Of a stretch of 64,000 nucleotides of DNA, positions 3,593 through 56,614 are shown piece after piece. Each line of letters starts with the position of its first letter. Positions within the stretch are counted from its first letter, which is position 1. A program made the position numbers and the translations under genes. Under the pieces are notes generated by a model. It was not told where the DNA came from. It made no database searches and saw only the letters and a list, made by a program, of their open reading frames with translations. Source of the stretch: an uncultured Bacilli bacterium (GTDB lineage Bacteria; Bacillota_I; Bacilli_A; RF39; UBA660); assembly GCA_947589435.1 (NCBI GenBank), contig CANQBI010000002.1, forward strand, positions 886 to 64,885, written 5' to 3'.

Positions 3593-3635
3593 GATATTTG
3601 TCAAAAATTAGTAAAAATATATCTTGACAAATATC
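3593..3635. repeat. perfect 12-bp inverted repeat GATATTTGTCAA / TTGACAAATATC, 19-bp spacer
   Basis: The arms lie at 3593-3604 and 3624-3635. The right arm contains the -35 hexamer of the surface-protein promoter. Confidence 0.85.
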
Positions 3636-3654
3636 ATACGGGGGGGGGTATAAT
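3624..3654 (+). promoter_or_regulatory. sigma-A-type promoter with a G9 tract in the spacer
   Basis: TTGACA (3624-3629), then a 19-nt spacer ending in G9, then TATAAT (3649-3654). An AAGAGGA RBS and the ATG at 3683 follow. Confidence 0.7.
3640..3648. repeat. G9 homopolymer tract
   Basis: The sequence reads atacGGGGGGGGGtataat. It is one of only two G/C runs of 7 or more that I saw in the window. Confidence 0.95.
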
Positions 3655-3682: not shown

Positions 3683-5092
3683 ATGAAAAATTTAAAAATG
3701 TTTGCAATTGCTGTTATGGCATTCGCTGTAATGGCTATGGGTGTTCATGCTGATAATGTCGCAAGATATACTGATAAAGACGGTTATAAACATGAATTTA
3801 CTACTTTAACACAAGCTTTAGCAGATGTTAAAGATTCTGAAGAAAATGTAACTGTAACTGTTTTAAAAGATATTACTAATGAAACATTTACTGCCGTTAC
3901 AATCAGCGGTAAAGTTACACTTGATTTAGATGGACACAAGGTTTCTTTAACTGGTGGAAATATTAAAGTTGAGAAAGGTACTTTAGTAGTTACTGGTAAA
4001 GAAGGAAGTACAATTTATAGAACTGGAAATACTGGAGGGACTTTATTTGTTGTTCTAGGAAGAAGTTCTCATTTAACTGTTGATACAAATGTAACAGTTG
4101 GATCAAAAGATTCAACAGATACTGCTGTTGGATTATTTAGTGACAAGGGCGCTGCACAATTAGGAAGTGCTGTTAATGCTACAATTGATATTAAAGGAAC
4201 TTTATTATCTAAATCAGGATTTGCTTTCAGTGTTGAAGGATGTGTTGAAGAAGCAGAAAAAAATCCTGCTAAAGTTACAATCTATGATGGAGCAAAATTA
4301 GTTAGTAAAGAAGGCATGGCTTTATATCAAGCTGGTTATGCTATAACAACTATTGGAAAGGCTACAATTGAAGGAGATAGTGGTGTTGGCGCTAAAGCTG
4401 GTTCTATTACATTTAATGGAACTACTGTTACTGCTAAAGGTGAACACGTTGATGAAGCAGGAGATATGAATGGCGGAATCAATGCTGTTGGTGCTGCTAT
4501 TCAAGTAGAAAGTAGTGAAGAAGGAACAACATATGCAAGTCCAGCAACTATTACATTAAATGGTGGTACTTATACATCTGAAAAAACAAATGCAATAGTA
4601 ATTAACAACTGGAGTAAGACAAAAACTGCCTTAGATGAAAAATCAGTTATTGATGGTGGAGCTGTATTAAATAGTGCTGAAGATGAAGATGGTGAACCAT
4701 TACCTGGTATTGCTATTACTGCTGCTGAAAAAGATATAGCTGAAAAATTATTAACAAATCTTGAAGGCTTTGTTAAAGATGCAGAATTTAATGGTGCTAT
4801 TGTTGGAGATTTACTTGTTGGTGATAACACTAAAGATGCTAGTGCTATTCAAGCTACTTTAACAAAAGGTTCTAATGTTAACACTGATGATGAAGGTAAT
4901 ACTACTGTTGGTGGTAATACTGAAGGACAACAACCAGGAACTACAGAACCAGGAACAACTGGTGATGGAAATCAAGGTGGAACAGAAAACGTTAAAAATC
5001 CAGAAACTAATGATAATATCTTAGTATATGCTGGTCTAGGACTAGTAAGTCTTGCCTCTGTTGCTTTTACAGCAAAGAAAAGAGAAGACTAA
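3683..5092 (+). CDS. cell-surface protein with signal peptide and C-terminal sortase-type sorting signal (NPETN + TM + KKRED)
   Basis: The N-terminal signal MKNLKMFAIAVMAFAVMAMGVHA is followed by a Gly/Thr/Val-rich repetitive beta-strand-like body. The C-terminus is NPETNDNILVYAGLGLVSLASVAFTAKKRED. Confidence 0.75.
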   Translation: MKNLKMFAIAVMAFAVMAMGVHADNVARYTDKDGYKHEFTTLTQALADVKDSEENVTVTVLKDITNETFTAVTISGKVTLDLDGHKVSLTGGNIKVEKGTLVVTGKEGSTIYRTGNTGGTLFVVLGRSSHLTVDTNVTVGSKDSTDTAVGLFSDKGAAQLGSAVNATIDIKGTLLSKSGFAFSVEGCVEEAEKNPAKVTIYDGAKLVSKEGMALYQAGYAITTIGKATIEGDSGVGAKAGSITFNGTTVTAKGEHVDEAGDMNGGINAVGAAIQVESSEEGTTYASPATITLNGGTYTSEKTNAIVINNWSKTKTALDEKSVIDGGAVLNSAEDEDGEPLPGIAITAAEKDIAEKLLTNLEGFVKDAEFNGAIVGDLLVGDNTKDASAIQATLTKGSNVNTDDEGNTTVGGNTEGQQPGTTEPGTTGDGNQGGTENVKNPETNDNILVYAGLGLVSLASVAFTAKKRED

Positions 5093-13990: not shown

Positions 13991-14015
13991 TCCTATGGAC
14001 ATTAGGAAGTTTTTT
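13985..14015 (+). terminator. rho-independent terminator
   Basis: The stem AAAACTTCCTA / TAGGAAGTTTT is followed by a T run. Confidence 0.75.
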
Positions 14016-14048
14016 GTGTTTAATAATACTTTAAAGAAAGGAGGGTTT

Positions 14049-14864
14049 ATGAAAATATTGAAAAAAGTATTATTAATTCTTTGTTTAATTTTATTTATCA
14101 GTTTAATAATTTTAAATATTTATCAATACACTAAAAATAATGATAAGATAGTTGTATATAAAATAGAAGAAACAATTAAAAATGATATACCTATTAAAGG
14201 AGCATTCTTTAAAACTAATAATTCTTTATTTTTAGGAATAGTTATTTATTCTCAAAGATATTTTGATGAAGATACTTATACAAAATTAGAATTATATTCG
14301 GAAAAAGATAACCAATTATTAAAAACAGAAAATTATAGTAAATATATGATTCTTAATGATTATGAATTGTATCATAATTATCTTGATAAAAATAATAAAT
14401 TAATTTTAAAGATTTATTATAAAGATAATACGGAAGAAGAAGTAAGTATTGATTTTAAAGAAATTTATCAAAATAGTTTAAAAAACACTTTAGAAAAATT
14501 TAAATTAAAAAGTTCTAAAGAAAAAATAATTGAAAAGGTAAATAATACTAAAAACAAATTAATTCTTAATATGATTCCTCAAGCTAATTTTTATATTTAT
14601 ATGTTTAATAATCATGAATCAGCGACATATATTCCGGAAAATAACACTTTGTCTTATTATCATTTATTAAAAGATAATGAGTATGATAGATACTATTTAG
14701 ATTTAAATAAATTAGAATTAATATATACTTATAGTGTTAATGATGAAGATGTTAAAACATATATTTATTCTTTAAATCATGATTATTGTGAAAAAGAAGA
14801 ATGTCAAGATTATAAGGCCAAAAAAGAAAATTTTGATAATTTAATATTAAAAATTATTTCTTAA
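14049..14864 (+). CDS. hypothetical membrane-anchored protein
   Basis: The start is set at the ATG after the AAAGGAGGG RBS. The track start at 13995 lies inside the terminator. The N-terminal TM is KKVLLILCLILFISLIILNIY. No recognisable motif. Confidence 0.6.
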   Translation: MKILKKVLLILCLILFISLIILNIYQYTKNNDKIVVYKIEETIKNDIPIKGAFFKTNNSLFLGIVIYSQRYFDEDTYTKLELYSEKDNQLLKTENYSKYMILNDYELYHNYLDKNNKLILKIYYKDNTEEEVSIDFKEIYQNSLKNTLEKFKLKSSKEKIIEKVNNTKNKLILNMIPQANFYIYMFNNHESATYIPENNTLSYYHLLKDNEYDRYYLDLNKLELIYTYSVNDEDVKTYIYSLNHDYCEKEECQDYKAKKENFDNLILKIIS

Positions 14865-14932
14865 ATTGTGCAACTTAAATTGACATATTTTGGCTATTTA
14901 GATATAATTTTTATATAGGAGATGCTGTATAA

Positions 14933-16186
14933 ATGGAGAGTGAAAGACTAGTAAAACTTAAAATGCGTAAAATCTATAAGTTAGGTTTATCATTTGTGGG
15001 ATTACTAATCTTTTTAACTTCTTTTTTAGGGGTATGTTACTTATTTTATGATAAAGTAATAGATCCTTCCAATGATATTGAAGTAAATGGAGCTTTATCC
15101 ATTAATTATGTTGATGGTAAAAGTTTTGATATTACTAAAAATAATAAAATAAAATTTTCGATTTCTAATAGTAGTGAAGATGTGCAATATTATAATATTG
15201 TTTTCTTAAAAATAAGAGGAGATGGAAGTTATAAAATTTTATATAATGATACTTTAATTAATGAAGGAAGTCTTAGTACGAAAGATGAAGTAGCTACGGA
15301 TTCTATTAGTATTGATGCTTTAGAAACTAAGATATATACCTTAGAAATTGATTCTAATGAAAATAATTTAAAAGGAGTAGTTAGTGTAAGAAGTTCTAAA
15401 GGTAAACAAGAAAATTTTGCATCGACTATTTTAAAAAATAATCCTTTTAGTGATAATTCCTTAACTAAAATTGGAAGTGATGCTGGAGTGGAAAATGAAG
15501 GCTTAATTAAAAGCAGTGATGATATTGGGGTATCTTACTTCTTTAGAGGTAATATATCTAATAATTATGTTAGTATTAATGATGTATTATGGCGAATTGT
15601 AAGAATTAATGGTGATGGCACTGTAAGATTAGTTTTAAATGATGTAACTAATGCGGTATCTAATTATTATAATACTGGGGAATTTGTTACGGATTATAAA
15701 GAAAGTAATATCTATTCTTATTTAGATACTTGGTTTCAAGAAAACTTAAGAGGTTATACATCAAATGTGGCTAATACAAGATTTTGTAATGATACAAGTG
15801 TTAATAATGAAGGTATATATTCGTCATATGCGCGGGTTATAACTAATAAAATACCAACTTTTAATTGTTTAAGTAATTCATTTACAAGTAAAATAGGCAT
15901 TTTAAGTGTGGATGAAGTCGTTATGGCCGGAGCTTATCCTGATGGAGGTAATAATAATTATTATTTATATAATAGTGAAATAAGCGATTCTTGGTTTACC
16001 ATGAGTGGCGCCAAGGGAAGTGATGCAACGCTTAATCTCTTTATGATTGATGCCAGTGGTAAAATAAAAAGTGATATAGCTGGAAGTGCTTATCACAGTG
16101 TCCGTCCTGTTATTAATTTAATTAAAAATACGCAAGTTACGGGTGATGGAACAATAGATAATCCTTACCAAATCGTTACCGAGTAA
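14933..16186 (+). CDS. membrane-anchored surface protein related to the C-terminal domain of cassette proteins B1/B2
   Basis: The N-terminal TM is LGLSFVGLLIFLTSFLGVCYLF. Motifs shared with B1/B2: YFFRGN.SNNYV...LWRIVRINGDGTVRL, GILSVDEV, SWFTMSG, VRPVINL...TGDGTIDNPYQIV. Confidence 0.6.
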   Translation: MESERLVKLKMRKIYKLGLSFVGLLIFLTSFLGVCYLFYDKVIDPSNDIEVNGALSINYVDGKSFDITKNNKIKFSISNSSEDVQYYNIVFLKIRGDGSYKILYNDTLINEGSLSTKDEVATDSISIDALETKIYTLEIDSNENNLKGVVSVRSSKGKQENFASTILKNNPFSDNSLTKIGSDAGVENEGLIKSSDDIGVSYFFRGNISNNYVSINDVLWRIVRINGDGTVRLVLNDVTNAVSNYYNTGEFVTDYKESNIYSYLDTWFQENLRGYTSNVANTRFCNDTSVNNEGIYSSYARVITNKIPTFNCLSNSFTSKIGILSVDEVVMAGAYPDGGNNNYYLYNSEISDSWFTMSGAKGSDATLNLFMIDASGKIKSDIAGSAYHSVRPVINLIKNTQVTGDGTIDNPYQIVTE

Positions 16187-18217: not shown

Positions 18218-18246
18218 TTGACTAAATAAAATAAATATTATATTAT
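18218..18246 (+). promoter_or_regulatory. promoter of cassette 1
   Basis: TTGACT, 17-nt spacer, TATTAT. A TCCTATT motif (18213-18219) overlaps the -35 hexamer. Confidence 0.5.
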
Positions 18247-18284
18247 TTAAATGTAAGGTAGAAGGATATTTTTTATTTGTAATT

Positions 18285-18306
18285 AATATTCGGTATTTAC
18301 AACATA
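18285..18306 (+). promoter_or_regulatory. conserved 5'-leader motif AATATTCGGTATTTACAACATA (copy 1 of 3)
   Basis: Related copies lie at 36428-36449 and 54588-54607. The consensus is ATAT(T)CGGTAT-N4-AACAT. Confidence 0.5.
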
Positions 18307-18355
18307 AGTATAAAATTAAATAAATATATAAATAATATAAAAGAGGTAAAAGAGT

Positions 18356-18445
18356 ATGAAGAAAGAGAATAAAAACTTAGTATTATATGTAGGATTAACT
18401 ATATTAGTAGTTCTAATAAGTAGCATCGGGGGGGGGTTATTGTAA
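18356..18445 (+). CDS. 29-codon leader ORF carrying a G9 tract (probable detached N-terminus of the next gene)
   Basis: An AAGAGGT RBS lies 9 nt before the ATG. The product is MKKENKNLVLYVGLTILVVLISSIGGGLL*. The G9 tract at 18428-18436 encodes GGG. The stop comes 2 codons later. Confidence 0.6.
   Translation: MKKENKNLVLYVGLTILVVLISSIGGGLL
18428..18436. repeat. G9 homopolymer tract inside coding sequence
   Basis: The sequence reads gcatcGGGGGGGGGttattg. Confidence 0.95.
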
Positions 18446-18572
18446 CACCCTAATATCTTTAGTATTCATACCATTTAATAATCTAAAATATAAACTTTAT
18501 AATATAAAAGAAAAATATAATAATTTAAAATATAAACGAGAAATAACCTATATCATTCTCGGTCTTTTTGTT

Positions 18573-19184
18573 ATGACTTTATTTAGAATAATAAGCACCA
18601 CTCATGCTTATTATAATTATGAGATGGCTCCAGTACCTATATTTACCAGTAAAGTTGGAAACTTTGCTGGTGAAGGAGAAACAGTAAAAGATGGCCCTTT
18701 AAGTGGTAAAAGTACAGATGTTAATGTTATATGGTATACTCAAATGCCAGATAATCCAAAGAAGTATAAAGAGAATAAAGAAGTACCAGTAACAGGATTT
18801 ACATTAAATCAAGATATATCTAATTGTTATCCTAAAAATAATGAAGACGGAACAACATATAATCCAGATTATAAAATAAGTGAAGATGGAACAGTAGATA
18901 TAACAGTATCCGAAACTAAACCAAATCAAATAGTATGTCGATTATATTATGATAGAGATAAGATATCAGATGTAATAGTATATGCTTATATTCAAGACAC
19001 AACTGGTGATAGAGAATATGAAGGAAATAAATATAAAATGAGTAGTACAATACCAACAGGAAAGACATATGTAGGATATAAATGTTCCAATACAAGTGTT
19101 GCCACCAATATAAATTACAATGATACAGATGGATTTACAATAGATACAGATGGACCAAATACATGTTATGCTTATTTTAAGTAA
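18573..19184 (+). CDS. cassette 1 protein A1: secreted protein with TasA/camelysin-like (SipW-type) signal-peptide motif, as annotated lacking most of its signal peptide
   Basis: It is a paralogue of 54608-55324. Shared features are THAYYNYEMAPVPIF..VGNF, two Cys-bracketed modules (..C..-x30-40-..VCRLYYD and ..CSN..-..CYAYF) and the C-terminus GPNTCYAYFK. The homologous N-terminal residues EKYNNLKYKREITYIILGLFV lie upstream of the first ATG. Confidence 0.6.
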   Translation: MTLFRIISTTHAYYNYEMAPVPIFTSKVGNFAGEGETVKDGPLSGKSTDVNVIWYTQMPDNPKKYKENKEVPVTGFTLNQDISNCYPKNNEDGTTYNPDYKISEDGTVDITVSETKPNQIVCRLYYDRDKISDVIVYAYIQDTTGDREYEGNKYKMSSTIPTGKTYVGYKCSNTSVATNINYNDTDGFTIDTDGPNTCYAYFK

Positions 19185-19197
19185 GGAGTGAAAATAT

Positions 19198-20439
19198 ATG
19201 AAAAAGAAAATAATCTTAAAATTAATAGTTATATTAATAACAATAGGAATAATCTATGAAGGGTATGGGATGATAAAAGAATTTAAAAAATCAAATAAAG
19301 TTTTAGAGGACATTAAAACAATAGATGTATTCAGTAAGAAAGATAAATCACTAGCTATAATGATACAAAATGATGGAATAAGCGCAGATGAAACAGAATA
19401 TGGCTGGCATGAGGCAGAAGATAGAAGTAAATGGCCAGATAAAAATACCTACACATATGCAGGAGCCGAGTGTACTGATAGTGAAGGAGTAAGTGTGCCA
19501 AGTAAAAATATTTTGTCATTTGATGAAACAACATATACAGCACACATTAAAACAAAACAAACCATATATTGTACGCTATACTTTGGAAAAGGAAGACATG
19601 CATTAGAAACATTAGACGCTCAAGGAGGACAATATTATGCAAATGGAAATAATACAGCAGTAGAAGGATTATATAGATTTAAAGGGACATATAGTCAAGT
19701 AACAAATAACTTTATCTGTATAGGAGGACCAAAAAACCCCGAAACATGCGGAAGTGTCGAAGGAAACAAATACTTATATAGAATAATAGGAGTAACAGAT
19801 GGGACCGAAGCAGCAGAAAGTAATTCATTAGGATTAGATAAAGGAATGCTAAAAGTAATAAAAGTCATACCATCAAGTACAAACCAAAAATGGGCTTCTT
19901 CTTCTAATAAATATGATAATTTCACATGGGACTATGAGCCTAGTTCTCAGACAACTGGAGCAATGGCGAGATGGACATTAAATAATACATTCTATAATGG
20001 ATTAGGAGGAGAAAAAAATTTAATAAAAGAGGTATATTGGTGGAAAGGAGATAGAAATAATGCACCATCAAGTGGAGCTGAAGCAAAAACAAGAACAAGT
20101 GAAAAATATTCAATAGGCTTAATGTATGCAAGTGATTATTATAATTCATGGACATATCCAACAGCCTCTTATGGGATTCACAACGATAGTTGGCTTCACC
20201 TTTCTCGAACTATGAGTGGAAAAACAAATACATATCAATCTAAATATGAATGGACCATGACCAGAGGTGGAGAAACCGTTTCTAGTATAATTGATGGTGA
20301 TGGTTTTGTATCCTATATAGATCTTACTTATTCGACTATAGTTCGCCCAGTATTTTATCTAAAATCAGATGTTGCTATAATGGGATTTGGAACAGAACAA
20401 AGTCCATACATAATAACATCTCCTCTAATAAATAATTAA
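19198..20439 (+). CDS. cassette 1 protein B1: membrane-anchored surface protein
   Basis: The RBS is AAGGAG. The N-terminal TM is ILKLIVILITIGIIY, followed by one Cys-bracketed module (AECTD...IYCTLYFGKG). The C-terminal domain carries LYRIIGV, GLMYASDY, SWLHLS, VRPVFYL...GFGTEQSPYIITS. By eye about half the residues are identical to B2. Confidence 0.7.
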   Translation: MKKKIILKLIVILITIGIIYEGYGMIKEFKKSNKVLEDIKTIDVFSKKDKSLAIMIQNDGISADETEYGWHEAEDRSKWPDKNTYTYAGAECTDSEGVSVPSKNILSFDETTYTAHIKTKQTIYCTLYFGKGRHALETLDAQGGQYYANGNNTAVEGLYRFKGTYSQVTNNFICIGGPKNPETCGSVEGNKYLYRIIGVTDGTEAAESNSLGLDKGMLKVIKVIPSSTNQKWASSSNKYDNFTWDYEPSSQTTGAMARWTLNNTFYNGLGGEKNLIKEVYWWKGDRNNAPSSGAEAKTRTSEKYSIGLMYASDYYNSWTYPTASYGIHNDSWLHLSRTMSGKTNTYQSKYEWTMTRGGETVSSIIDGDGFVSYIDLTYSTIVRPVFYLKSDVAIMGFGTEQSPYIITSPLINN

Positions 20440-26678: not shown

Positions 26679-29222
26679 ATGAAAAGAAATGAAGTAGACA
26701 GAAATAAACTAAGTCCCATGATGAGACAATATATGGAAATCAAAGATAATTATGAAGATGAACTTCTATTTTTTCGCTTGGGGGATTTTTATGAATTGTT
26801 TTTTGAAGATGGACTTACAGCCTCAAGAGAACTAGAGCTTACTTTAACAGGTAAATCTTGTGGACTAGAGGAAAGAGTACCCATGTGTGGGGTTCCTTAT
26901 CATGCGGTTAAAGGTTATATTGAAAAACTAGTTAATAAAGGTTACCGAATTGCTATTTGTGAACAGTTAGAGGACCCTAAAATGACTAAAGATACTGTTA
27001 AAAGAGGGGTTGTTGATGTTATTAGTAAAGGGACAATAACCGATTATGAACTTTTAGATGATAAAGTAAATTCTTATATAGCAAGTATCTTAGAATTTAG
27101 TGATATTTATATTATTACTTATGCGGATATTTCTACTGGGGAACTATCTAGTATTAGTTTAAAAAAAGAAGAAAATACTCTTTATAGTGAAGTTTTAAAT
27201 TTAGGAATTAAAGAAGTTATTTTAATAGATAATACCAATGTTACTTTAGTGGATACTCTCAAAAATAAATATGGGATTGATATTGTTTTTAGTAATGCCT
27301 ATTATAATGAAGAACTACCTTTCTTAAAAAAAGTAAATGATGCTAGGAAGAAAATGGGGGTTAATCACTTATTTTATTATTTAGTGGTTAAAGAATTAAA
27401 AGATTTAAGTCATTTTAACGAACTCAAAGAAATTAATAAATTAGACTATTTAGAAATGGATGTCCATACTGTTCGTAACTTAGAATTATTTGAAACAATT
27501 AGATTAAAAGATAGAACTTATTCTTTGATTTGGCTTTTAGATAAATGTAAGACGGCGATGGGTTCAAGAAAACTTAAAAGTTTTTTAATGCATCCTTTAA
27601 AAGATATAAATTTACTTAATCAAAGATATGATAGAATTGAATGCTTAAATAATAATTTTATATTAAAAGATGAACTTAAAAATTTATTAAATGAAATATA
27701 TGATATTGAAAGATTATGTGGAAAAGTAGCGACCGGTAGTGTTAATGGAAGAGATCTTCTGCAACTAAGAAATAGTTTAAAAGTTTTACCAAGATTAAAA
27801 GAAATATTAATTAAACTAGACATATATCCGGATATTGATACGCATCAAGATATTTATATGTTACTCGAGGCCTCTTTATATGAAAATCCTCCCATTAGTG
27901 TTAAAGAAGGCTATTTAATTAAAGAAGGTTATAATAAAGATTTAGATGAGTTAAAAAGTATCAGAAGTAATGGCAAAGATTTTATTTTACAATTTGAAAA
28001 TAAATTAAAAGAAGAAACCGGAATTAAGACTTTAAAAGTTGGTTTTAATAAAGTCTTTGGTTATTTTATTGAAGTATCTAAAGGAATGGCTAAAGAAGTT
28101 AAAGAAAATTTTGGCTGGGAAAGAAGACAAACTTTAACTAATTGCGAAAGGTATATCTCTCCCGAGTTAAAAGAAAAAGAAGCTTTAATTTTAAATGCGG
28201 AAGAAAAGATTATTGATTTAGAATATAATTTATTTACGGAAATTAAAAATATTATTAAAAAAGAAGTTTTAAAAATTAAAAAGACGGCGGATATTATTAG
28301 TGAAGTTGATGCTTTAGTATCTTTATCCATTTGTAGTGAAGAATATAATTTAATAAGACCAACTTTAAATGAATGTAAAGATTTAGAAATAATTGAAGGA
28401 AGACACCCTGTTGTCGAAGTAGTTAGTAAAGATAATTATGTGGCTAATGATTGTGTGATGAATAATAATCAAAGTACTTTACTTATAACAGGCCCTAACA
28501 TGAGTGGTAAATCAACATTTATGAGAGAAGTAGCTATTATTATAATTATGGCGCAGATGGGTTCTTTTGTTCCCGCTAAAAGAGCGAAAATTCCGATTAT
28601 TGATAAAATATTTACCCGAATTGGAGCCTCTGATGATTTAGTTTCCGGCGAATCAACATTCATGGTGGAAATGAAAGAAGCCGAAAATGCTCTTGCGAAT
28701 GCGACTGAGAAAAGTTTAATTATTTTTGATGAACTAGGAAGAGGTACCGCGACTTATGATGGTATGAGTTTAGCCCAAGCCATACTTGAATATGTTTGTG
28801 AAAATATTAAAGCTTTAACATTATTTTCGACCCATTATCACGAGTTAACTAGTTTAGAGAAAAAGTTTAAACTAATTAAAAATGTGCATGTGGAAGCCGT
28901 GGAAAATAATGGAGAAATTACTTTCTTACATAAAGTGAAAAATGGCGCGATTGATAAAAGTTATGGTATTCATGTCGCCAAACTGGCGGGATTACCTCCA
29001 AGTCTTTTAGAAAGAGCTAGTGATATTTTAAAAAATTATGAAAGTAATAAAAAGAGTAATAAACAAATTGAAAAAGTGCAATTAAGTTTTGACTTTGAAG
29101 AAGAAAAAGATAAAGATGAAGACTTATTAAAGAGTGAGTTAAATAAAATAGATCCTGTTAATATGACTCCTCTTGAAGCTTTAAATTATTTGTATGAATT
29201 AAAAAGAAAGGTCCAAAAATAA
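26679..29222 (+). CDS. mutS: DNA mismatch repair protein MutS
   Basis: Motifs seen: TPMMRQYMEIK, the FYELFFEDG mismatch-binding motif, Walker A GPNMSGKST, and DELGRGT. Confidence 0.97.
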   Translation: MKRNEVDRNKLSPMMRQYMEIKDNYEDELLFFRLGDFYELFFEDGLTASRELELTLTGKSCGLEERVPMCGVPYHAVKGYIEKLVNKGYRIAICEQLEDPKMTKDTVKRGVVDVISKGTITDYELLDDKVNSYIASILEFSDIYIITYADISTGELSSISLKKEENTLYSEVLNLGIKEVILIDNTNVTLVDTLKNKYGIDIVFSNAYYNEELPFLKKVNDARKKMGVNHLFYYLVVKELKDLSHFNELKEINKLDYLEMDVHTVRNLELFETIRLKDRTYSLIWLLDKCKTAMGSRKLKSFLMHPLKDINLLNQRYDRIECLNNNFILKDELKNLLNEIYDIERLCGKVATGSVNGRDLLQLRNSLKVLPRLKEILIKLDIYPDIDTHQDIYMLLEASLYENPPISVKEGYLIKEGYNKDLDELKSIRSNGKDFILQFENKLKEETGIKTLKVGFNKVFGYFIEVSKGMAKEVKENFGWERRQTLTNCERYISPELKEKEALILNAEEKIIDLEYNLFTEIKNIIKKEVLKIKKTADIISEVDALVSLSICSEEYNLIRPTLNECKDLEIIEGRHPVVEVVSKDNYVANDCVMNNNQSTLLITGPNMSGKSTFMREVAIIIIMAQMGSFVPAKRAKIPIIDKIFTRIGASDDLVSGESTFMVEMKEAENALANATEKSLIIFDELGRGTATYDGMSLAQAILEYVCENIKALTLFSTHYHELTSLEKKFKLIKNVHVEAVENNGEITFLHKVKNGAIDKSYGIHVAKLAGLPPSLLERASDILKNYESNKKSNKQIEKVQLSFDFEEEKDKDEDLLKSELNKIDPVNMTPLEALNYLYELKRKVQK

Positions 29223-54566: not shown

Positions 54567-54587
54567 ACTATAGAATGTGTCCAATTT

Positions 54588-54607
54588 AATATCGGTATTA
54601 GCAACAT
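54588..54607 (+). promoter_or_regulatory. conserved leader motif copy 3: AATATCGGTATTAGCAACAT
   Basis: It lies about 35 nt downstream of the predicted transcription start, as in cassette 1. Confidence 0.45.
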
Positions 54608-55324
54608 ATGAAAGGATGTGATAGTTTGATAAGAGAAAAATTAAAAAATGTGAGGTATAAAAAAGAAATAATAGCAATTATAGTTCTTGTTATTTTTGCA
54701 ACCGTTATTATCACTTTAAGAGGAACCCATGCTTATTATAATTATGAGATGGCCCCAGTTCCTATATTTACAGGCAGGGTAGGAAACTTTAGTGGTAAAG
54801 GTGACACCTCAAATTTAGATAAACCAACAGATGTTAATTTAATGTTTTATGTTCAAGATATAACAAATCCAAAAAATTACACTATCATGGATGGTCCACC
54901 TGTATTGGTATCAGGATATATTATTAGTGACAAAAAAAGCAATTGTATACCAGTTAATGGAACATACGATAAGATTGATGATAAAGTATATTCTATTTCT
55001 GAAGACGGAACAGTAACAGTTAAAATAAGTCAAAGTAAACCAAATCAAGTTGTTTGTCGAATTTATTACGATTATGAAAAAGATTTAACAAAAGAAGATA
55101 TTATAGTTTTTGCTTTAAAAGAAGATGATTTAGGAATGATTATTTATAATGACAAACATTATATAATGAGCGAAACTATACCTAGTACTGGTTTTACTTA
55201 TAATGGCTCAAACTGTAGTAATACAGAAATAGCAACTGAAATTAACTATAATACTACAAATGGGTTTACTTTTAAAACTGAAGGTCCAAATTTATGCTAT
55301 GCCTATTTTAATAAAACAAATTAA
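54608..55324 (+). CDS. cassette 2 protein A2: secreted protein with TasA/camelysin-like (SipW-type) signal-peptide motif
   Basis: The n-region and TM are KKEIIAIIVLVIFATVIITL, followed by RGTHAYYNYEMAPVPIFTGRVGNF. It has two Cys-bracketed modules and the C-terminus GPNLCYAYF. The true start may be the in-frame TTG at 54626, 9 nt after AAAGGA. Confidence 0.7.
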   Translation: MKGCDSLIREKLKNVRYKKEIIAIIVLVIFATVIITLRGTHAYYNYEMAPVPIFTGRVGNFSGKGDTSNLDKPTDVNLMFYVQDITNPKNYTIMDGPPVLVSGYIISDKKSNCIPVNGTYDKIDDKVYSISEDGTVTVKISQSKPNQVVCRIYYDYEKDLTKEDIIVFALKEDDLGMIIYNDKHYIMSETIPSTGFTYNGSNCSNTEIATEINYNTTNGFTFKTEGPNLCYAYFNKTN

Positions 55325-55336
55325 GGAGATGAAATA

Positions 55337-56614
55337 ATGAAGAAAGAAGTATATTTAAGAGTTATAATAATTGCTTTGGTATTATTATCGTGTTATGAAA
55401 GTTATGAGTATTTTTGTGATTTAAGAGTTTCTAATAAGGTATTTGAAGATGTTAAACAAGTAGAGGCTTTTAATGATAAGGAGAAAGCACTAACAATAAT
55501 GATTCAAAATGATGATGATTACGATTATCATGAAGCTCCAGATAGAAGTAAATGGCCAAGTTATACAGAATATACATATGCGGGAACAAAATGTGAAGAT
55601 GCATCAGGTAATAACATAGAAAATACTAGACAGTATGTGCAATTTGATGAATTAAGTAATATGGCAACAATTACCACAAAAAAAACTATATACTGTACTT
55701 TGTATTTTTCAAAAGGACGTCCAGCAGCTGAAGTATTGCCTAAGAATGCCGTAGGTGGAAACGGAGTAACAGTATTTACAGAAAATGATGTAGATGGCCT
55801 ATACAGATTTGCTGGTACATATACAGAAGTTAACAATAATTTTCTTTGTTTTGGCGCAGTAACAAATCTAGAAGAATGTGTAAGTTCCACTGGTAATAAA
55901 AATAAATATCTTTATAGAATAATTGGAATAGTAAGTAAAGATGATGATACTTTAGGTCTAAAAAAAGGTCAAATGAAAATAATTCGTGCAAATTATTCAA
56001 GAAGCGGATCAAATATTTGGGCTAATACTGGTGATCCAGTAAATTTAGATTGGGAACAAACTATTGGTACTTTATACAATGTTACGTCTTTTTATAATAG
56101 TTTAGATCAAAAATTAAAAAATTTAATAACAACTCAATATTGGTATAAAGGAGATATAAAAAATGATCCTCCAACAACACAACCGAAAATTCGCACATCA
56201 AAACAATATTCAGCAGGTTTAATGTATGCTAGTGATTATGTTAATTCTTGTCCAACAGGTGTAAAAACTTATGGTAGTAAATGTTATTGGTATCAAAAAC
56301 CTATTCCTAGTTGGTTACATTTAAGTCATGGACATTCGAATGTTAGTCTTGGTCAATACTATAGAGAATTGACCAAGACACATTATGGTAGTTATACTAA
56401 CTCATATACGTACATGGTGGAATACCATCATTGGGAAATATCTGCTGATTCTGATTATGATGATGGCCAATTAGTTTTTAATGATGATCGAAATTGCGAT
56501 GTAGGTACTTATATACGACCCGTTTTTTACCTTGATGCCTCTGTTCCTATTGCTGGTTTTGGTACAGAACAAAGTCCATATATTATTACAAGTATTGCTG
56601 GACCACAAGGATAA
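55337..56614 (+). CDS. cassette 2 protein B2: membrane-anchored surface protein
   Basis: It is a paralogue of B1. Shared motifs are SNKVFEDVK, IMIQND, DRSKWP, IYCTLYF, GLYRF.GTY, NKYLYRIIG, GLMYASDY, SWLHLS, RPVFYL, GFGTEQSPYIITS. Confidence 0.75.
   Translation: MKKEVYLRVIIIALVLLSCYESYEYFCDLRVSNKVFEDVKQVEAFNDKEKALTIMIQNDDDYDYHEAPDRSKWPSYTEYTYAGTKCEDASGNNIENTRQYVQFDELSNMATITTKKTIYCTLYFSKGRPAAEVLPKNAVGGNGVTVFTENDVDGLYRFAGTYTEVNNNFLCFGAVTNLEECVSSTGNKNKYLYRIIGIVSKDDDTLGLKKGQMKIIRANYSRSGSNIWANTGDPVNLDWEQTIGTLYNVTSFYNSLDQKLKNLITTQYWYKGDIKNDPPTTQPKIRTSKQYSAGLMYASDYVNSCPTGVKTYGSKCYWYQKPIPSWLHLSHGHSNVSLGQYYRELTKTHYGSYTNSYTYMVEYHHWEISADSDYDDGQLVFNDDRNCDVGTYIRPVFYLDASVPIAGFGTEQSPYIITSIAGPQG

Follow-up and report, generated by a model that had tools for sequence, protein, structure and literature searches.

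Repeat-mediated contingency loci are textbook material in Neisseria, Haemophilus, Campylobacter, Helicobacter and the mycoplasmas, and the phase variation described in gut Firmicutes mainly involves invertible DNA. In Mycoplasma hyorhinis, the vlp genes carry a poly-A tract in the promoter spacer, and the variable lipoprotein families of Mycoplasma share a conserved 5′ region. Campylobacter jejuni is not known to possess MutS/MutL mismatch repair. Here, we describe a run of nine guanines (G9) in an uncultured Bacilli bacterium (assembly GCA_947589435.1, contig CANQBI010000002.1, positions 886 to 64,885), a stretch of 64,000 nucleotides (nt) that we refer to as the window. The tract (18428-18436) lies between a short leader open reading frame (ORF) and a gene, A1, that appears to lack a start codon of its own, and we consider it probable that this tract is the mutable element of a slipped-strand translational phase-variation switch.

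Several described systems offer a comparison. In gonococcal pilC, a homo-guanine tract in the signal-peptide region undergoes RecA-independent ON/OFF frameshifts (Jonsson et al. 1991, as summarised in PMC5354566), and the two paralogous copies of the gene have independent states (PMC5354566). In the opa family of Neisseria, which comprises up to 12 constitutively transcribed genes, the repeat is CTCTT and lies in the part that encodes the leader peptide; the copies are independently in or out of frame, and cells express none to several of them (PMC5354566). The polyG tracts of C. jejuni are 8-11 long with a modal length of nine, and G8 mutates mainly by insertion, G11 by deletion (Bayliss et al. 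2012; PMC3401435). Like pilC, A1 has poly-G in its 5′ coding part, ahead of a mature protein for which export is predicted. Like the C. jejuni loci, the family to which A1 belongs has tracts of 8-11 with a mode of nine, at many loci per genome and in an AT-rich genome.

The leader, the G tract and the A1 frame

The features on which the analysis rests are listed below, in coordinates of the window.

18428-18436, forward strand: G9 homopolymeric tract, the proposed slipped-strand switch (OFF at G9/G10, ON at G8/G11)
18356-18445, forward strand: leader ORF in the G9 state, 29 codons plus TAA, product MKKENKNLVLYVGLTILVVLISSIGGGLL (translation, frame check)
18343-18346, forward strand: Shine-Dalgarno-like GAGG, 9 nt 5′ of the leader ATG (sequence inspection, aaGAGGt)
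18437-18572, forward strand: linker and Lys-rich n-region in the A1 frame, YCNTLISLVFIPFNNLKYKLYNIKEKYNNLKYKREITYIILGLFV, open and start-less
18573-19184, forward strand: A1 body callable at G9, 203 amino acids (aa), beginning inside the hydrophobic core
19198-20439, forward strand: B1, co-oriented partner of 413 aa with an N-terminal transmembrane segment and its own AAGGAG, starting 13 nt after A1
54608-56614, forward strand: paralogous cassette of A2 (54608-55324) and B2 (55337-56614), with no leader and no tract

A first-pass annotation of this DNA had claimed that the ATG at 18356, with a ribosome-binding site, opens an ORF that runs through the tract and stops two codons later, and that the A1 frame contains no stop as far upstream as 18420 and no start codon before 18573. 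Both claims were reproduced. The leader reads ...ATC GGG GGG GGG TTA TTG TAA through an uninterrupted G9 that is flanked by AGTAGCATC on the 5′ side and TTATTGTAACACC on the 3′ side. The A1 frame is closed upstream by a TAA at 18417-18419, and none of the 51 A1-frame codons 5′ of 18573 is ATG, GTG or TTG. Since 18437-18572 holds no start codon, it could be translated only via read-through from the leader.

To follow the frame, we replaced the tract in silico with runs of other lengths. G8 gave a fusion of 275 aa and G11 one of 276 aa, as expected from the earlier statement that removing one G or adding two joins the leader to A1, and G6, G7, G9, G10 and G12 all gave products of 28-32 aa. Changing the tract length in this way toggles between a full-length and a prematurely terminated product, and the proteins of 270-278 aa called in databases agree with this. 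The predicted junction peptide of the fusion is …SSIGGGYCNTLISLVFIPFNNLK, in which IGGGYCNTL spans the junction.

The ATG at 18573 is poorly placed as a start. It lies within the hydrophobic core (…ITYIILGLFV-M-TLFRIIS-THA/YY…, where the slash marks the predicted cleavage point), and a purine-rich Shine-Dalgarno sequence is absent upstream. The start-less stretch further upstream aligns with the N-terminus of A2, in keeping with the homology to the A2 signal-peptide region noted in the first-pass annotation. At the DNA level, this homology starts at ATA AAA GAA (18504), the codon that follows the TTG (54626) in A2 and the ATG in most relatives (MIKEK…). Where relatives have ATG/TTG-ATA-AAA, A1 has AAT-ATA-AAA; by this alignment, A1 has lost the family's own start codon, so that the leader ATG would be the sole route to the full n-region, h-region and T-H-A/Y-Y site. 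A2 itself is listed from the ATG at 54608 (MKGCDSLIREK…); the family consensus is MIKEK/MIREK, and the protein P0023 starts MIREKLKNVRYKK. The true start of A2 is probably the TTG at 54626 (MIREK...), judging from the family consensus and an aaaggatg Shine-Dalgarno-like sequence.

A run of this kind is rare in such DNA. The window is 28.0% G+C and carries housekeeping genes typical of a Firmicute (hrcA-grpE-dnaK-dnaJ, lexA, mutS, valS). GGGGGGGGG occurs twice in it, as against 0.03 +/- 0.17 expected from dinucleotide-preserving shuffles, with 0 of 100 shuffles reaching two, which is more than chance would give. GGG is the rarest Gly codon in the window (9.8%). Two independent assemblies of nearly the same locus also have G9 (L018, 98.9% identity; L019, syntenic, 91-95%), which makes a one-off assembly error unlikely.

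We next consider the protein that an in-frame tract would give. Its N-terminus MKKENKN and a loop NNLKYKLYNIKEKYNNLKYKRE are both strongly basic, and between them lies LVLYVGLTILVVLISSI-GGG-YCNTLISLVFIPF. By the positive-inside rule, the fused N-terminus may form a short membrane hairpin ahead of the signal core. The hairpin turn would hold the Gly3-4 encoded by the tract and should accept GGG as well as GGGG. Relative to the predicted cleavage motif, the tract lies on the 5′ side and hence within the pre-sequence, although the segment that it occupies is an additional hydrophobic stretch at the N-terminus and not the canonical h-region. Within the A family, the A-Y at T-H-A/Y-Y (18600-18614) is invariant (A84 and Y86), as are four Cys. 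By the -3/-1 rule, T-H-A/Y-Y is a plausible signal-peptidase I site, and cleavage there would leave YYNYEMAPVPIF as the mature N-terminus of A1. Two other readings of this region were set aside. The idea of a SipW/TasA/camelysin signal peptide was dropped as the N-terminal 57 residues of A1 and A2 had no NCBIfam match at E up to 10, and the whole A1 and A2 proteins likewise had no such match in NCBIfam or Pfam. A lipoprotein reading of the leader (…IGGGY-C) was rejected on inspection, the Tyr at -1 being unfit for a lipobox.

In an AlphaFold model of A1, which is of moderate quality, the mature part is beta-rich, with a predicted local distance difference test (pLDDT) score of 72.5 overall and of 70-93 for residues 120-275. 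Foldseek found no match to this model in the PDB at E <= 0.001; the best matches were cadherin-like or S-layer-like tandem beta-sandwiches at a probability of at most 0.14, which says only that the fold is beta-sandwich-like. Searches of Pfam and NCBIfam gave no family for A1, A2, B1 or B2.

Relatives, tract lengths and the shared 5′ module

Using the in-silico G8 product as a search query, we obtained 41 homologues, none with an annotated function. Most are 225-240 aa long and start straight at MIKEK/MIREK, as A2 does; several are ~200-208 aa and start inside the hydrophobic core, as the truncated A1 does. P0006 (270 aa, from the NCBI metagenome-assembled genome (MAG) GCA_947628485.1) is a complete fusion, MKKDNKNLVLY…ISQIGGGYCNTLISLVFIPYN…, and its contig has G8. 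Truncated homologues sit on contigs with G9, where a 29-aa gene is called separately. This is a small family: at E <= 1e-3, 1.84 billion proteins yielded only 116 representative clusters. In Joint Genome Institute (JGI) metagenomes, the flank pattern gave 0 matches and a protein-profile locus search gave 0 confirmed loci.

Tract lengths were collected in two ways. A scan with the tract flanks of contigs from one genome per GTDB species yielded 12 loci, all in two rabbit-gut "uncultured Bacilli bacterium" MAGs (5 + 7), the isolates Lapin-017__bin11 and Lapin-021__bin69. Nine of the 12 have G9 and one each has G8, G10 and G11; the G8 (270 aa) and G11 (273 aa) loci are in frame, which makes one in-frame locus per MAG (1/5, 1/7). 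Further ENA contigs came from exact-protein look-ups and cluster members, bringing the total to 23 non-duplicate contigs. At the same position, these have G8 (three contigs), G9 (17), G10 (one) or G11 (two), and every G8 and G11 allele is a fused ORF called as a protein of 270-278 aa. Comparison of tract length in relatives, which the first-pass annotation had put forward as a check, thus gave a range of G8 to G11 behind the same leader. The G8 allele of P0006/P0056 (270 aa) is preceded by the same upstream sequence in each of three independent assemblies (L015, L027 and L028), and further in-frame alleles are P0054 (278 aa, G11) and that of L013 (273 aa, G11). L009 and L013, which are in the same MAG, have identical leader DNA (72/72), yet one has G9 and the other G11. 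Outside these positions, no other G run of seven or more was present in ~139 kb of fetched loci.

The reading frames on both sides of the tract are kept open. Across 17 distinct alleles, the leader frame has no stops, compared to 114 and 24 in the other two frames. Stops are likewise absent from body-frame codons 1-83, a stretch in which the other frames have 9-22 per allele. All complete bodies are open over 243-665 codons, whether the allele is in frame or out of frame. In the same 17 alleles, the first body-frame ATG, GTG or TTG comes at codon 32-60 after the tract and always inside the hydrophobic core; as no start lies between tract and core, only by starting at the leader ATG could the family make a product that includes the Lys-rich n-region. 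That the ORF stays intact in OFF alleles points to selection on the ON product. The variable sites of the leader are spread evenly over codon positions (12, 11, 10), which suggests no strong peptide-specific constraint on the leader beyond hydrophobicity.

The conservation extends 5′ of the leader, where two further features can be placed.

18218-18246, forward strand: promoter-like TTGACT-17 nt-TATTAT, the putative 5′ end of the switch module (best promoter-scan match, 10/12)
18247-18355, forward strand: conserved 5′ untranslated region (UTR) of ~110 nt with the motif TTAATATTCGGTATTTACAACATA at 18283-18306 (column identity 0.8-0.9 over 17 loci)

Together, promoter, UTR, leader, tract and the first 40-60 nt of the linker form a module of ~300 bp that precedes A-type genes on the 23 contigs. 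Its columns are 80-98% conserved, compared to ~50-60% in the bodies, and the tract with its flanks is the best-conserved part of the locus. The -10 region of the promoter-like site is kept in most of the 17 aligned loci. Among 12 aligned UTRs, AAAGAGGT at the Shine-Dalgarno site is invariant, and the TTCGG and ACAAC of the shared UTR motif are nearly so. By local alignment, the A1 (18283-18306) and A2 (54586-54609) UTRs have TTAATAT(T)CGGTATTTACAACATA in common. This motif may be a protein-binding site. We rejected a structured RNA or riboswitch in the 5′ UTR, as RNAalifold gave -0.69 kcal/mol with essentially no covariation, and a search of the UTR against Rfam had no match bar a sub-threshold snoRNA on the opposite strand.

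The bodies behind the module are diverse. Some are short A-type genes followed by a B gene, a pair found in L001, L002, L004, L019 and L025-L028; others encode long proteins of 354-665 aa. In these long relatives, an A-type N-terminus (THAYY…PV(P/Q)IF.GKVGNF) is followed in the same protein by Ig/fn3-like repeats and, at the C-terminus, a B-like domain, with a match to fn3 at 26.2 bits (cut-off 25) and weak matches to Big_13 and DUF6273.

Judged by their bodies, virtually identical genes can be in frame in one sample and out of frame in another. The bodies of P0056 (270 aa; L027/L028, G8) and P0057 (205 aa; L026, G9) are identical but for 1 nt in 1500, and those of P0054 (278 aa; L025, G11) and P0048 (209 aa; L029, G9) but for 1 nt in 756. 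The upstream parts of these contigs are mosaic. In L026, an L015-type body is preceded by a leader, a G9 and, further upstream, a Ku-LigD context that are those of L011 (97.5% identity), and L029 joins an L009-type leader to the L025 body. Informative sites confine the crossover to the interval from the tract to +46 in one pair and to that from +22 to +82 in the other; both fall within an invariant segment of 40-80 nt just 3′ of the tract. L018 matches the window from 18240 on (18240-19524) at 98.9% identity, with 0 mismatches in the 1088 nt 3′ of the tract, and has a LigD-like gene upstream in place of mtaB; it is also 100% identical over 1079 nt to L017, a contig that breaks right after the tract. 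The related contigs have coverages of 2-7x and were built by de Bruijn assembly (metaSPAdes), and the mosaics L018, L026 and L029 may be real recombinants between paralogues or, equally, metaSPAdes chimeras at the repeat. It is conceivable, though we think it rather doubtful, that the module doubles as a recombination cassette, in which exchange 3′ of the tract re-assorts leaders, promoter context and tract length among bodies and sites. If so, the ON/OFF state would be passed between members of the family by recombination as well as by slippage, which would amount to two-layer antigenic variation in an uncultured gut Firmicute.

The proposed switch and its alternatives

In the phase-variation switch that we favor, the module would supply a promoter, a UTR of ~110 nt, a leader ATG with its Shine-Dalgarno sequence, 24 basic and hydrophobic leader codons, the G tract and the linker. 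At G8 or G11, the leader would read Ile-Gly3(4)-Tyr-Cys-Asn... into A1, giving a protein of 275 or 276 aa that is presumably exported and processed. At G9 or G10, ribosomes would stop 2-5 codons past the tract and A1 would not be made. Slipped-strand mispairing during replication would change the tract length and so produce a heritable and reversible ON/OFF state, and we infer that switching might also affect B1. As the module heads at least 5-7 loci per genome, a population could display varied combinations of secreted or surface proteins. The prevalence of G9 among relatives may be because of a mutational bias such as that measured in C. jejuni (PMC3401435). The window also encodes a MutS homologue (847 aa, 26679-29222), and the organism probably has mismatch repair, unlike Campylobacter.

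A number of observations weigh against this switch. The syntenic mtaB-leader-A-B-lexA locus has G9 in all three assemblies in which it was found (the window, L018 and L019), and exact look-ups of B1, A1 and LexA for tract variation at this same locus returned G9 only, plus one contig that breaks at the tract. More generally, the out-of-frame G9 is the state of 17 of the 23 contigs. The ON/OFF pairs with identical bodies differ by exchange of the whole leader, with the crossover just 3′ of the tract, and their length differences may be due to recombination or to assembly chimeras at the repeat and are not demonstrably due to slippage. With MutS encoded in the window, slippage may be less frequent than in Campylobacter, which is deficient in repair. 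Two hydrophobic segments lie ahead of the signal core, and the topology and export of the fused N-terminus are predicted only; the structural model is unreliable there (pLDDT <50 at residues 25-32). Finally, a surface role of A1 itself is confirmed by no family assignment (Pfam, NCBIfam, Foldseek). The ON/OFF switch proposed in the first-pass annotation has good comparative support: in-frame G8 and G11 alleles and length polymorphism were found among relatives, and the orthologous locus had G9 in 3/3 assemblies.

The explanation that competes best with a switch is recoding. G9 would then be the normal state, and either transcriptional slippage (one G lost in the RNA) or a +1 frameshift on GGG GGG GGG would allow constitutive low expression. 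Judging from frameshift sites in general, the run of rare GGG here (9.8% of Gly), together with a Shine-Dalgarno-like G-rich sequence, could favor pausing or slipping, and the frequency of G9 (17/23 contigs, and all three assemblies of the syntenic locus) would be expected. Nevertheless, we find recoding unlikely. G8 and G11 alleles that are in frame were recovered reproducibly, and the out-of-frame arrangement is not universal in the family. The G10 allele would be rescued by neither a +1 shift nor a 1-nt deletion in the RNA. Further, no known stimulatory element was found, Rfam had no match, the stop is only two codons past the tract, and the modal G9 is accounted for by a mutational bias of the C. 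jejuni type (PMC3401435). Recoding can coexist with the switch, as leakiness.

We give still less credence to the presence of two separate genes, in which the 29-aa hydrophobic peptide would be a small membrane protein or a regulatory upstream ORF and A1 would be translated from an internal or non-canonical start. The leader does have a good Shine-Dalgarno sequence and is always open, and the peptide would be made at G9. However, the even distribution of variable sites over the leader's codon positions (12, 11, 10) suggests that little beyond hydrophobicity strongly constrains the peptide, the first canonical start in the A1 frame falls within the h-region and has no Shine-Dalgarno sequence, and the Lys-rich n-region homologous to that of A2 is conserved in frame though it would then never be translatable. 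A non-canonical start at an ATA (body-frame codon 6, 16 nt past the G run, which would serve as the Shine-Dalgarno sequence) was judged improbable, given the spacing and the very weak ATA start.

The remaining two explanations are highly improbable. That A1 is a decaying gene, frameshifted in a chance homopolymer, with A2 as the functional copy, would fit an A1 that is out of frame in the window and two other assemblies and an A2 with its own start in the same window, but not bodies of 243-665 codons free of body-frame stops in 17 distinct alleles (9-22 per 83 codons in the other frames), a tract and flanks that are the best-conserved part of the locus, or the in-frame alleles. That the true tract is G8 and the gene intact, G9 being an artefact of sequencing or assembly, is suggested by the error-proneness of homopolymers, the 2-7x coverage of related contigs and the break of L017 exactly at the tract, but differing samples and assemblies independently gave G9, in the window, in L018, in L019 and in 14 further contigs, and since G8 came up three times between identical flanks, the assemblies do distinguish G8 from G9.

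Neighboring genes, the second G tract and known systems

The B genes that accompany A1 and A2 are related to each other, B1 and B2 being 42% identical; a PDB sequence search with B1 gave merely a 40-residue Sel1 match (E 2e-4), which is not informative. Two more membrane-anchored proteins of unannotated function are encoded just upstream of mtaB (13995-16186). One of them, of 417 aa (14933-16186), shares the C-terminal pattern '…VRPV(I/F)(N/Y)L…G.GT..(N/S)PY.I' with B1 (E 0.001), so a B-like domain appears to be used by further genes here. In Lapin-017__bin11, L007 carries on the minus strand (716-2755) a gene for a 679-aa ABC transporter with an N-terminal Cys-protease-like part (…DCGICCMQW…), near a 665-aa leader-type gene. 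This transporter seems to resemble C39-peptidase bacteriocin-type exporters.

The only other G run of seven or more in the window is a second G9, at 3640-3648. It occupies the spacer, 19 nt long, that separates a perfect TTGACA (3625-3630) from an equally perfect TATAAT (3649-3654); G7 or G8 at this position would give the usual spacer of 17-18 nt. Our promoter scan passes over 3625-3654 because the spacer exceeds 18 nt. The gene downstream (3683-5092) encodes a protein of 469 aa with a signal peptide and a C-terminal anchor made up of NPETN, a hydrophobic segment and KKRED; it has a weak LPXTG-anchor match and belongs to a family with many paralogues. The region 3625-3654 looks like a promoter-spacer phase switch, which, set beside the tract of A1, suggests that, in this genome, G tracts serve at control points of more than one type. 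An exact look-up of the 469-aa surface protein gave no match, and a truncated variant (P0065) led to L030, a second assembly that is 99.8% identical and in which the promoter tract is also G9. Compared to the window, L030 has a 1-nt deletion at ~4394 (gctAAAgct -> gctAAgct) that cuts the product to 261 aa. This deletion could be a real frameshift allele or an error due to low coverage (3x).

Taken as a whole, an uncultured rabbit-gut Bacilli of 28% G+C appears to run a secreted or surface family through one portable poly-G module. For annotation, this matters as such genes are currently called as fragments of 29 aa and ~200 aa, and, for the reading of MAG consensus sequences, as a frameshifted gene is not necessarily a dead one. 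For the biology of host and commensal, the module could support stochastic variation of the surface repertoire, for example under pressure from IgA or phage.

The resemblance of this locus to pilC and opa is one of mechanism only, as Pfam, NCBIfam and PDB searches found no homology to PilC or Opa. Unlike in pilC, the tract of A1 is part of an N-terminal extension that has been added ahead of a complete n-h-c region without a start of its own; the host is a gut bacterium of Gram-positive type with 28% G+C, the family has at least 5-7 copies, and switching is predicted from sequence. As in opa, there is a multigene family in which each copy has its own repeat in the leader region. In contrast to opa, the repeat is a homopolymer and not a pentamer, the proteins are unrelated, and the independence of switching would follow from the tract lengths of paralogues only. 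The tracts of C. jejuni are scattered in unrelated genes, mostly for surface-glycan modification, whereas here they belong to one 5′ module of a paralogous family, and unlike C. jejuni, the window encodes MutS.

The vlp system is similar in its conserved promoter/UTR/signal-peptide module over divergent paralogues, its homopolymer switch and its place in the AT-rich wider Bacilli/Mollicutes branch. It differs in that the vlp switch is transcriptional and that proposed for A1 acts on the reading frame; further, A1 is not a lipoprotein and there is no homology. It is the window's second G9, in a promoter spacer, that resembles the vlp arrangement. The mechanism is thus a familiar one, in a lineage and a gene family that are new and with no sequence kinship to the systems compared here. 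Three aspects appear to be particular to it: an N-terminal extension with the tract seems to have been acquired, and the native start lost along with it; paralogues with very different bodies share, by alignment, the entire promoter-UTR-leader-tract-linker unit; and the probable host of the switch is an uncultured, MutS-encoding, AT-rich member of the gut Bacilli.

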